Virus record (IMG/VR): IMGVR_UViG_638341086_000010
From: a virus
Lineage: Duplodnaviria; Heunggongvirae; Uroviricota; Caudoviricetes
Direction: 5' to 3' (one strand)
DNA: 39,725 bases
Shown here: one piece after another, positions 37,509 to 39,725 of the stretch
How the letters are laid out: each line of letters begins with the position of its first letter
Position numbering within the stretch: position 1 is the stretch's first letter
Notes under the pieces: generated by a model
The model's input: only the letters and a program-made list of their open reading frames with translations
What the model was told of the DNA's origin: nothing
Database searches by the model: none
Program-made: the position numbers and the translations under genes

Positions 37509-37720
37509 CACCTCAGCAGGAAAACGCCCTTCGCAGCATTGCCCGTCAGGCTAATTCTGAAATCAAAAAAGCCAGACAGCAGTTTCCGGATAAAAACGTC
37601 GATGACATTTGCCGTAGCGTACTTAAGAAGCACCGCGAAACGGTAACGCTGATGGGATTCACACCGACTCATTTAAGCCTGGCGATCGGCATGTTAAACG
37701 GCGTCTTTAAGGAACGGTGA
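37505..37720 (+). CDS. Hypothetical protein, 71 aa
   Basis: ATG coupled to the upstream small ORF; translation MTPQQENALRSIARQANSEIKKARQQFPDKNVDDICRSVLKKHRETV.... The ORF-track version (37406) runs out of frame through the methyltransferase 3-prime end. Confidence 0.55.
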   Translation: MTPQQENALRSIARQANSEIKKARQQFPDKNVDDICRSVLKKHRETVTLMGFTPTHLSLAIGMLNGVFKER

Positions 37721-37818
37721 ACATGAAAAGCAAAATCATCAGGGAGCTACAGGCTCCTTTTTTATTGTTCGCATTCATCCTCAAGCGTATTAACCAACAA
37801 TTCAGGGATTAATGGAAG

Positions 37819-38037
37819 ATGGCAGACATCATTGATTCAGCATCAGAAATCGAAGAATTACAGCGCAATACAGCAATAAAAATGCGTCGTCAGAACTACC
37901 AGACTGTATCCGCAACTCATTGTTGTGAGTGTGGCGATCCGATAGATGAGCGAAGACGCCTGGCTGTTCAGGGTTGTCGGACTTGTGCAAGTTGCCAGGA
38001 GGAGATCGAACTTAAGAACAAACAATGGGGACTGTGA
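37819..38037 (+). CDS. TraR/DksA-family C4-type zinc-finger protein, 72 aa
   Basis: Four-cysteine motif CxxC…(17)…CxxC (…CCECGDPIDERRRLAVQGCRTCASCQ…) and a size typical of phage TraR-like proteins. Confidence 0.8.
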   Translation: MADIIDSASEIEELQRNTAIKMRRQNYQTVSATHCCECGDPIDERRRLAVQGCRTCASCQEEIELKNKQWGL

Positions 38038-38084
38038 TGGCCTCAAAGCAGCAAATTTCAACATCGTCCAACTGAGGTGTAAAA

Positions 38085-38363
38085 ATGTTCAGAATCATTT
38101 TTCCTAACACCTGGTACGTCGACCACCACGGCACTCCCTGCAAAATCCTGCGTTCTACCCACAACAAAGTTCACTACATCCGAAAAGGCAGAACATGTAT
38201 CGCCAGCATGTTCCGCTTTAATCATGACTTTGAACCTGTGAATAAAGCTGATGCAGATCGGATAGCAGAAGAGATCGAAACGGCAGAACACATTAAGAAG
38301 TTACGTGACATGCGTTCAAAAAGCAGAGGTAACCATGGAATCATACAGCCTCACACTCGATGA
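38085..38363 (+). CDS. Hypothetical protein, 92 aa
   Basis: ORF with GAGGTG RBS 5 nt upstream; no recognisable motif. Confidence 0.55.
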   Translation: MFRIIFPNTWYVDHHGTPCKILRSTHNKVHYIRKGRTCIASMFRFNHDFEPVNKADADRIAEEIETAEHIKKLRDMRSKSRGNHGIIQPHTR

Positions 38364-38706
38364 GGCCTGTCAGTTTCTTAAGATATCCAGACCAACCGCC
38401 ACCAACTGGATACGAACAGGCCGCCTACAGGCAACACGTAAAGATCCAACCAAGCCAAAATCTCCTTACCTCACAACACGGCAAGCCTGCATTGCGGCGC
38501 TTCAGTCTCCGCTGCATACTGTCCAGGTGAGCGCGGGTGATGGCATAACAGAGGAAAGAAAATGTCACTCTTCCGCAGAAATGAAATATGGTATGCCTCG
38601 TATTCGCTCCCGGGCGGGAAACGAATTAAGGAATCTCTTGGCACAAAGGACAAGCGGCAAGCTCAGGAGTTGCACGACAAGCGAAAAGCAGAACTCTGGC
38701 GAGTAG
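38335..38706 (+). CDS. xis: Excisionase-like DNA-binding protein (AlpA/Xis family); 124 aa as read, with a C-terminal extension that overlaps int
   Basis: GAGGT RBS; N-terminal 60 aa resemble winged-helix excisionases (…[26 protein letters not shown]…). The frame stays open for 145 nt into int, so the true 3-prime end is uncertain. Confidence 0.55.
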
Positions 38707-39725
38707 AAAAGCTAGGGGATTTACCTGATGTCACTTTTGAAGAGGCCTGCCTAAGATGGCTTGAGGAAAAAGCTGATAAAAAATCTCTCGATTCAGATAA
38801 AAGCCGGATTGAGTTCTGGCTTGAACATTTTGAGGGTATAAGGCTTAAAGATATCTCGGAGGCAAAGATTTACTCTGCTGTAAGCAGAATGCATAACAGA
38901 AAGACGAAAGAAATATGGAAACAGAAAGTTCAGGCCGCCATCAGGAAAGGTAAAGAACTGCCTGTTTATGAACCAAAGCCAGTATCAACTCAGACAAAGG
39001 CAAAGCATCTTGCCATGATAAAGGCCATTCTCCGTGCTGCAGAACGCGACTGGAAGTGGCTGGAAAAAGCGCCTGTCATCAAGATACCAGCGGTCAGAAA
39101 CAAGCGAGTCAGATGGCTGGAAAAGGAGGAAGCAAAACGCCTTATTGATGAGTGCCCCGAACCACTGAAATCTGTCGTCAAGTTTGCGCTGGCAACTGGT
39201 CTGAGAAAGTCGAACATCATAAATCTGGAATGGCAACAAATCGACATGCAGCGACGAGTTGCCTGGGTGAATCCAGAAGAGAGCAAATCAAACCGCGCCA
39301 TTGGTGTGGCGCTGAACGATACCGCCTGTAAAGTGTTGCGTGATCAAATAGGCAAGCATCACAAATGGGTGTTTGTACATACCAAGGCGGCTAAGCGAGC
39401 AGATGGAACATCAACGCCTGCGGTCAGGAAGATGCGCATCGACAGCAAGACATCATGGCTATCAGCTTGTCGTCGTGCAGGAATTGAAGATTTCCGTTTC
39501 CATGACCTCAGACACACCTGGGCAAGCTGGCTGATTCAGTCAGGCGTCCCATTATCAGTGCTTCAGGAAATGGGCGGATGGGAGTCCATAGAAATGGTTC
39601 GTAGGTATGCTCACCTTGCGCCTAATCATTTGACAGAGCATGCGAGGAAAATAGACGACATTTTTGGTGATAATGTCCCAAATATGTCCCACTCTGGAAT
39701 TATGGAGGATATAAAGAAGGCGTAA
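38562..39725 (+). CDS. intD: Tyrosine integrase (DLP12 IntD-type), 387 aa
   Basis: C-terminal catalytic motifs (…[11 protein letters not shown]… …[15 protein letters not shown]…); the whole translation matches the DLP12 integrase as recalled. The gene ends at the window edge, so the att site and target tRNA are outside the window. Confidence 0.92.

Follow-up and report, generated by a model that had tools for sequence, protein, structure and literature searches.

Conserved out-of-frame overlap of the excisionase and integrase genes in a P22-type phage module

Introduction

The excisionase (Xis) of phage lambda, a winged-helix directionality factor of 72 aa, is encoded just 5' of int by a gene that overlaps it; the C-terminal tail of lambda Xis comprises about 17 residues and the xis–int overlap about 20 nt. 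Phage P22 integrates at the thrW tRNA gene and has the same order of xis and int, with an overlap of 124 nt. Mattis et al. reportedly described P22 Xis as a protein of 116 aa with a pI of 9.42, and both values are reproduced by the P22 record and a pI calculation. P22 prophages deleted for xis are unable to excise (PMC8575938), and P22 Xis binds att DNA cooperatively and bends it (Mattis 2008, as quoted in PMC7498355). For lambda, the C-terminus of Xis is needed for cooperativity with Int and dispensable for DNA binding, according to the title of Numrych 1992 (listed in PMC2951348), and a Xis–Int interface within the excisive complex is described in PMC7498355.

Other described systems resemble one or another part of the locus studied here. 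Phage epsilon34 encodes an excisionase of 123 aa (gp24) and an integrase (gp23) whose genes overlap by 145 nt, and its attP resembles the 3' end of argU. In E. coli K-12, the prophage DLP12 carries xisD (b4633, a pseudogene) and intD at the argU site, again with a 145-nt overlap of frames; xisD is a defective gene from which about the first 44 codons, and with them the helix-turn-helix, are missing. The excisionase of mycobacteriophage Pukovnik, known as a solved structure (PDB 4j2n), has 56–58 residues and no long C-terminal tail. Here, we analyse the xis–int pair at the end of a 39,725-nt stretch of viral DNA (IMG/VR record IMGVR_UViG_638341086_000010), hereafter called the window.

Results

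Layout of xis and int

Read from the sequence, the xis open reading frame begins with an ATG at 38335 on the + strand and extends over 123 codons to a TAG stop at 38704–38706, whereas int, on the same strand, begins with an ATG at 38562 and encodes 387 aa up to a stop that ends at 39725 (38562 + 1164 − 1). The two genes thus share 38562–38706, out of frame, and the 145-nt overlap of an excisionase-like frame with int that a preliminary description had reported is correct in its coordinates. The int frame is +2 relative to that of xis, such that each xis codon consists of the second and third positions of one int codon followed by the first position of the next; consequently, any silent substitution at the third position of an int codon also changes a xis codon, at its second base. 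The module comprises the following features.

38326–38329, + strand: Shine–Dalgarno sequence GAGG of xis, 5 nt 5' of the ATG (read from the sequence)
38335–38706, + strand: xis, P22-type excisionase, full-length, 123 aa (open reading frame; PHROG 2907; identity to P22 Xis and epsilon34 gp24)
38347–38517, + strand: Xis residues 5–61, DNA-binding winged helix-turn-helix (AlphaFold, Pfam HTH_17, structural matches)
38518–38601, + strand: Xis residues 62–89, low-confidence linker (pLDDT about 50); includes the VSAGD motif and the ribosome-binding region of int
38551–38555, + strand: Shine–Dalgarno sequence GAGGA of int, 6 nt 5' of the ATG, within xis codons 73–74 (read from the sequence)
38562–38706, + strand: dual-coding stretch of 145 nt, Xis 76–123 and Int 1–48 (open reading frames; low int-synonymous variation, codon fixation)
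38562–39725, + strand: int, P22/DLP12-type tyrosine integrase (intD type), 387 aa (Pfam Phage_integrase, PF00589, E 5e-47; ATG conserved in 110 of 110 loci)
38602–38664, + strand: Xis 90–110, predicted amphipathic helices (90–101 and 107–110) with invariant L98, L102 and T106 (AlphaFold, 49 homologues, hydrophobic moment)
38683–38703, + strand: Xis 117–123 (EKQNSGE), a 7-residue extension found in the 145-nt class only (P22-class stop, TGA or TAA, at 38683–38685)

In the alignment, the methionine equivalent to the xis ATG is the start in all homologues. The last 41–48 codons of the Xis tail share their DNA with Int residues 1–48 in the other frame, and the part encoded in the overlap, residues 76–123, is basic, with 10 Lys and Arg against 4 Asp and Glu and a pI of 10.2. 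The prophage is lambda-like, and its leftward early operon carries the module at the far end. Because the window ends on the int stop, the att site and argU lie just outside it; in copies that extend further, the tRNA-Arg(UCU) gene argU is found 15 nt past the int stop. Most matching IMG/VR contigs likewise end on this base, 39725 in the window (locus length 3391).

Immediately 5' of xis is a DUF4222 gene (38085–38363), which overlaps the xis start by 29 nt (38335–38363) in another frame; in P22, eaC occupies this place. Rare database proteins of 206 aa are DUF4222–Xis fusions that arise from a 1-nt deletion in the CC run at 38350–38351 of ACAGCCTC (38346–38353) (P0005), and in other rare database proteins, Xis from residue 7 onwards follows a truncated N-terminal part of a serine recombinase (P0007, P0008).

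Xis is a two-part protein of the P22 family

Xis matches the PHROG 2907 'excisionase' profile with an E value of 5.9e-46, its residues 1–116 aligning to positions 2–117 of 117. The 48-residue overlap segment on its own also finds this profile (E 4.5e-8, positions 77–117); the tail aligns without gaps, and the 7-residue extension falls beyond the profile end. Identity amounts to 76–78% with P22 Xis, end to end, and to 80% with epsilon34 gp24 over the full length. A translated search (tblastn) of 50,697 phage records matched 162, all but one of which (161) cover at least 80% of the query; the matches in these 161 span Xis residues 1–122/123, and P22 appears there with 76% identity over residues 1–122. 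The integrase is named intD in RefSeq. The xis–int pair is very probably an intact and ordinary P22-family module of the argU-integrating kind, in which both gene and overlap are normal.

In Pfam, HTH_17 is matched by residues 6–36 at 35.5 bits (cut-off 27), and the TIGR01764 'excise' model scores 27.7 bits, just below its cut-off of 28.8. The other Pfam entries listed at E up to 0.1 are HTH_23 and HTH_29; Phage_AlpA (PF05930) is not among them, and the earlier label of an AlpA-type domain gives way to HTH_17. The lambda Xis family is likewise absent from the Pfam scan and from a PDB profile search (E up to 1), in keeping with no detectable sequence similarity between the two excisionases.

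An AlphaFold model of Xis built with 49 homologues places residues 5–61 in a confident winged helix (pLDDT about 80–90), whereas the tail as a whole is modelled with low confidence (46–62), including its helices 90–101 and 107–110 (50–62). The hydrophobic moment is maximal in 11-residue windows that start at residues 92–94. Foldseek returned as the best solved matches of the domain the Pukovnik Xis (TM 0.72–0.74, rmsd 1.6 Å over 51 columns, 24% identity), BldC, RacA and P2 Cox; lambda Xis is absent among the 50 matches listed. Pukovnik Xis was also the best match, though a weak one, in a PDB sequence search (E 0.011). The tail matched nothing in the structural search of solved structures. Xis hence consists of an N-terminal winged helix (residues about 5–61) followed by a C-terminal tail, basic and about 60 residues long, an arrangement shared with P22 Xis. 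The preliminary description had the frame open for about 48 codons past the winged helix; 48 is the number of codons that overlap int, but the domain ends near residue 61, which leaves about 62 codons beyond it.

Among the described systems, xisD of DLP12 is the same allele with one substitution, S107N, and its frame also ends in EKQNSGE, but the window copy is intact. The epsilon34 excisionase has an equal stop position and differs at several variable positions of the tail, and the window module is likewise of the argU type; the phage itself has a P22-like podovirus backbone, compared with the lambda-like siphovirus of the window.

The overlap ends at one of two positions across the family

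We compared 110 loci with Int identities of 54–100%, drawn from phage records, one-genome-per-species bacterial assemblies (among them Pseudocitrobacter, Siccibacter, Raoultella, Erwinia, Pantoea and Edwardsiella) and IMG/VR contigs. In all 110, int retains its ATG and the overlap is free of earlier stops in the xis frame. Aligned with one another, these excisionases end at only two places: the xis-frame stop lies exactly 124 nt past the int ATG in 18 loci, including P22, SfI, HK446 and ENT47670, and 145 nt past it in the other 92, including the window, epsilon34, APSE-1, POCJ13 and prophages of Pseudocitrobacter, Siccibacter, Raoultella and Erwinia. Annotated records give the same overlaps (locus coordinates).

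P22: xis 1501–1851, int start 1728, overlap 124 nt
SfI: xis 1836–2186, int start 2063, overlap 124 nt
HK446: xis 1501–1848, int start 1725, overlap 124 nt
ENT47670: xis 1501–1851, int start 1728, overlap 124 nt
epsilon34: xis 1501–1872, int start 1728, overlap 145 nt
APSE-1: xis 1489–1869, int start 1725, overlap 145 nt

Homologue lengths in a collection of 5.8 billion protein sequences also cluster at two values, 115/116 and 122/123 aa. The difference between the classes was traced to Int residue 41 and involves no indel. Where Int has Leu41-Lys42 (CTG or CTA followed by AAA), as in P22 with its CTG A, the xis frame reads TGA or TAA and stops. Arg at this position (CGA in the window) turns the xis codon into GAA and so removes the P22-position stop, and translation of xis runs on for 7 codons to the TAG formed from Int Val/Ile48 and the first base of the next codon, which in the window is GTA G of Val48-Glu49. 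Int-synonymous variation over these 7 codons is near background within the 145-nt class (0.49 compared with 0.54). Given this slight constraint on int silent sites, and the position of the extension beyond the family profile, we infer that the extra 7 residues are a near-neutral by-product of Int Arg41.

The two-class pattern bears on what the long overlap is. The preliminary description had offered either a genuine long overlap with a basic C-terminal tail on Xis or a xis 3' end changed by frameshift or point mutation, the 48 codons then being an aberrant extension that would affect excision control. In favour of an altered gene, the window frame exceeds the classical P22 Xis of 116 aa by 7 codons, and RefSeq labels the same gene in E. 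coli E2865 an incomplete pseudogene 'missing C-terminus'. The length difference, however, is accounted for by Arg or Leu at Int 41, the tail fits the family profile gap-free, an identical stop position recurs in 92 loci, and in the shorter class, too, the two genes share 124 nt; RefSeq's pseudogene label is an artefact of annotation, as set out below. Intact relatives with the overlap and a conserved C-terminus include P22, epsilon34, APSE-1 and the PhiR phages, such that functional phages share both the overlap and the conserved tail residues. A truly frameshifted xis looks very different: in SEN22 (Salmonella phage, locus 1501–1638) and GE_vB_TR (unverified record, 1501–1605), the products are 45 and 34 aa, owing to either sequencing errors or excision-defective isolates. 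An altered 3' end is refuted by the functional relatives and is extremely improbable, and no effect on excision control is indicated; the genuine overlap with a basic tail holds across the 110 loci.

A short overlap would also result if the int start were mis-assigned, for example if translation really began at the TTG codon 37. Int residues 3–45 give a weak, sub-threshold Pfam match to DUF6538, which might hint at such an error. Against it, the ATG occupies the same aligned position in every one of the 110 loci, preceded by GAGGA 6 nt upstream (GAGGA or a one-base variant in 18 of 18 aligned sequences), and residues 2–41, with 70% identity across the family, match the remainder of Int in conservation. 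Curated records for P22, SfI, epsilon34, HK446 and K-12 intD all use this start. A later start is therefore hardly credible, and we retain the ATG at 38562.

Constraint on int silent sites at conserved Xis residues

An open frame can arise by chance, and the tail might be translated but functionless, the xis frame being merely stop-free and the conservation of the tail mirroring that of Int. With the Int protein fixed and synonymous codons drawn at random, the probability of meeting no xis-frame stop up to and including int codon 40 is 0.44 for the window sequence and 0.41 on average, although elsewhere in int stop-free windows are few in this frame (6.4% of those of 40 codons and 3.5% of those of 47 codons). 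Openness of the frame is thus a weak statistical argument once conditioned on the Int protein, and the case for the tail rests on constraint at silent sites and on stop positions across the family.

We measured this constraint in 23 non-redundant integrases as the fraction of same-amino-acid pairs that use different codons. The value is 0.398 in int codons 2–41, the lowest of 35 sliding windows, compared with 0.571 in codons 52–387; within the 145-nt class, the corresponding values are 0.283 and 0.543. The non-overlapping xis codons 2–61 have an ordinary synonymous diversity (0.505), and recent shared ancestry of the region therefore does not explain the low diversity of the overlap. In the xis frame, identity reaches 0.516 in the overlap, compared with 0.34–0.43 in int segments of comparable Int identity, and stops number 0 compared with 2–3 per 40 codons in other int segments.

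The reduction is concentrated on particular int codons, each of which fixes a residue of Xis.

Int Phe4, TTC in 19 of 19: Xis Ser80
Int Tyr11, TAC in 18 of 19: Xis Thr87
Int residue 22, NTT in 22 of 23: Xis Leu98
Int Ser25, TCT in 20 of 23: Xis Leu101
Int Leu26, CTT in 23 of 23: Xis Leu102
Int Asp30, GAC in 22 of 22: Xis Thr106
Int Asp39, GAC in 21 of 23: Xis Thr115

By contrast, Int Gly19, Ala34 and Leu37 use 4–6 codons each, and the matching Xis positions vary freely. At alignment columns where the Int residue is conserved, one codon accounts for at least 90% in 5 of 22 within the overlap compared with 7 of 165 elsewhere (Fisher p 0.0065, Mann–Whitney p 9e-4). Xis C77, G86, L98, L102 and T106 are invariant in the 49 homologues.

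Some of these data fit a functionless tail: each sequence would stay open with a probability of about 0.41, the invariant C77 and G86 are forced by Int (Met1-Ser2 and Trp10, respectively), the tail is less conserved than the DNA-binding domain (identity 0.50 compared with 0.655), and its model has low confidence. Such a tail, though, does not account for silent sites that are frozen at Xis L98, L101, L102, T106, T115, S80 and T87 and free at Int G19, A34 and L37, for the significant enrichment of fixed codons in the overlap, or for xis stops at just two positions in 110 loci. Moreover, the fixed sites extend over int codons 22–39, past the usual range of translation-start effects. A functionless tail is accordingly improbable. 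Since int is frozen exactly where it specifies conserved Xis residues, codon comparison among aligned relatives shows purifying selection on the tail at the protein level; the position-specific pattern, with leucines at i, i+3 and i+4, points to selection on a helix rather than to a general nucleotide-level constraint. The constraint on int is moderate (a reduction of about 30–50%), and nucleotide-level functions near the int start could account for part of it.

The window and DLP12 share an allele with Met83, Met87 and Ile90 (38581–38604), positions occupied in most relatives by Val, Thr and Thr/Ser; the latter two residues of the allele stem from int-silent TAC to TAT changes at Int Tyr11 and Tyr14, codons otherwise nearly fixed as TAC. 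To judge from these substitutions, selection on the tail may be slightly relaxed in this lineage.

Nucleotide-level features near xis and int

The 15-mer GTGAGCGCGGGTGAT (38527–38541; xis codons 65–69, encoding VSAGD), 21–35 nt 5' of the int ATG, is unchanged in 100 of 115 loci; P22, SfI, epsilon34 and an Erwinia prophage with only 60% Int identity are among them. Over xis codons 62–75, synonymous diversity is very low (0.084). RNA structure was considered as a cause of the conservation at 38527–38541 or of translational coupling between xis and int, and was set aside, as no conserved fold emerged: a single-sequence fold round the int start gave z = −0.84, and a consensus fold of 18 diverged sequences yielded essentially nothing (3 pairs, −2.4 kcal/mol).

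A lambda-style, cII-activated promoter inside xis was also rejected. The cII-type box TTGC-N6-TTGC does not occur in the 39.7-kb window (2.7 expected), and no sigma-70-like promoter was found in 37700–39000; TTGCGG-17-CATACT at 38492–38520, seen by eye, is weak (7/12), and we make no promoter claim for it. With no cII box and no promoter near xis–int, the source of Int without Xis during lysogenization is not evident from the sequence.

At the other end of int, silent sites of codons 367–376 (39660–39689) are frozen across the 23 integrases, with a single codon at V372 and S376 and more than 90% use of one codon at I367 and N374; the last 40-codon window of int has a low synonymous diversity of 0.46. 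As argU/attB lies just 15 nt past the stop in longer copies, the coding sequence of int probably contains att arm-type binding sites here.

The allele is common and poorly annotated

Of 5426 complete E. coli genomes, 2639 have a match to the xis allele, with an identity of at least 99% in 1516, and the identical protein is encoded by at least 55 IMG/VR contigs; a scan of IMG/VR returned 80 near-identical copies, indicative of a common allele, with no added diversity. In the lambda-like phages PhiR26_1, PhiR30_1, PhiR34_1 and PhiR68_2 and in 2G7b and ev243, the xis–int region is 99.7–100% identical, and the last 24.7 kb of the window match PhiR34_1 at 98.8% identity over 92% of its length. PhiR68.2 has been used as a plaque-forming temperate phage (bioRxiv 10.1101/2025.11.03.685801). 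Such near-identity to plaque-forming temperate phages supports, indirectly, that the window allele would work in excision as P22 Xis does.

RefSeq reduces the identical xis in E. coli E2865 to a 66-nt pseudogene (locus 1536–1601), 'incomplete, missing C-terminus', and xis is unannotated in the records of PhiR26_1, 2G7b and ev243 (the records examined include NC_049954 and NC_049955). Prodigal allows a same-strand overlap of 60 nt. Gene callers likely miss xis because they limit same-strand overlaps, and its missing or shortened annotation is likely an artefact of the long overlap, one that parallels the damaged xis suspected in the preliminary description.

Discussion

The xis–int overlap described here is of a kind already known, and the finding is an ordinary one: the curated P22 annotation has carried a long xis–int overlap for decades, the window copy represents the DLP12/argU module of E. 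coli in its common, intact state, and the overlap has little biological import. P22 and the window agree in gene order, in the relation of the two frames and in the int start; P22 Xis ends 7 codons earlier, and the window element belongs to argU rather than thrW. Relative to lambda, the family is set apart by the size of the tail (about 60 residues) and of the overlap (124–145 nt).

By the mechanism published for P22 and lambda, Xis would bind tandem sites in one att arm, bend the DNA and steer Int to excision. The tail would then act as a flexible arm, in which a short amphipathic helix (L98, L101, L102, T106) probably folds on contact, and it would supply cooperativity between Xis and Int, between Xis protomers, or both, in the manner of the lambda Xis C-terminus; the likeness to lambda in tail function is by inference. 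Such a specific role of the tail in contacting Int and/or Xis, proposed by analogy, has in our estimate about an even chance of being right. A literature search made without the original texts of Leong 1986 and Mattis 2008 found no tail experiment for any P22-type Xis.

The dual-coding stretch invites a bolder reading, which we think rather unlikely. The Xis tail might contact the N-terminal arm-binding domain of Int, encoded by the same 124–145 nt, and form with it a locked, co-evolving specificity module; in addition, ribosomes translating xis, which would cross the int ribosome-binding site and end far inside int, could determine how much Xis relative to Int is made from the early transcript.

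For the analysis of related prophages, an element judged from annotation alone could look 'excision-defective' though its xis is intact. The codon analysis also offers a small but clear case of dual coding: the protein read in one frame freezes silent sites of the gene in the other. Should the tail and the Int arm-binding domain indeed engage each other, directionality factor and integrase would be inseparable and would evolve together as one specificity module.
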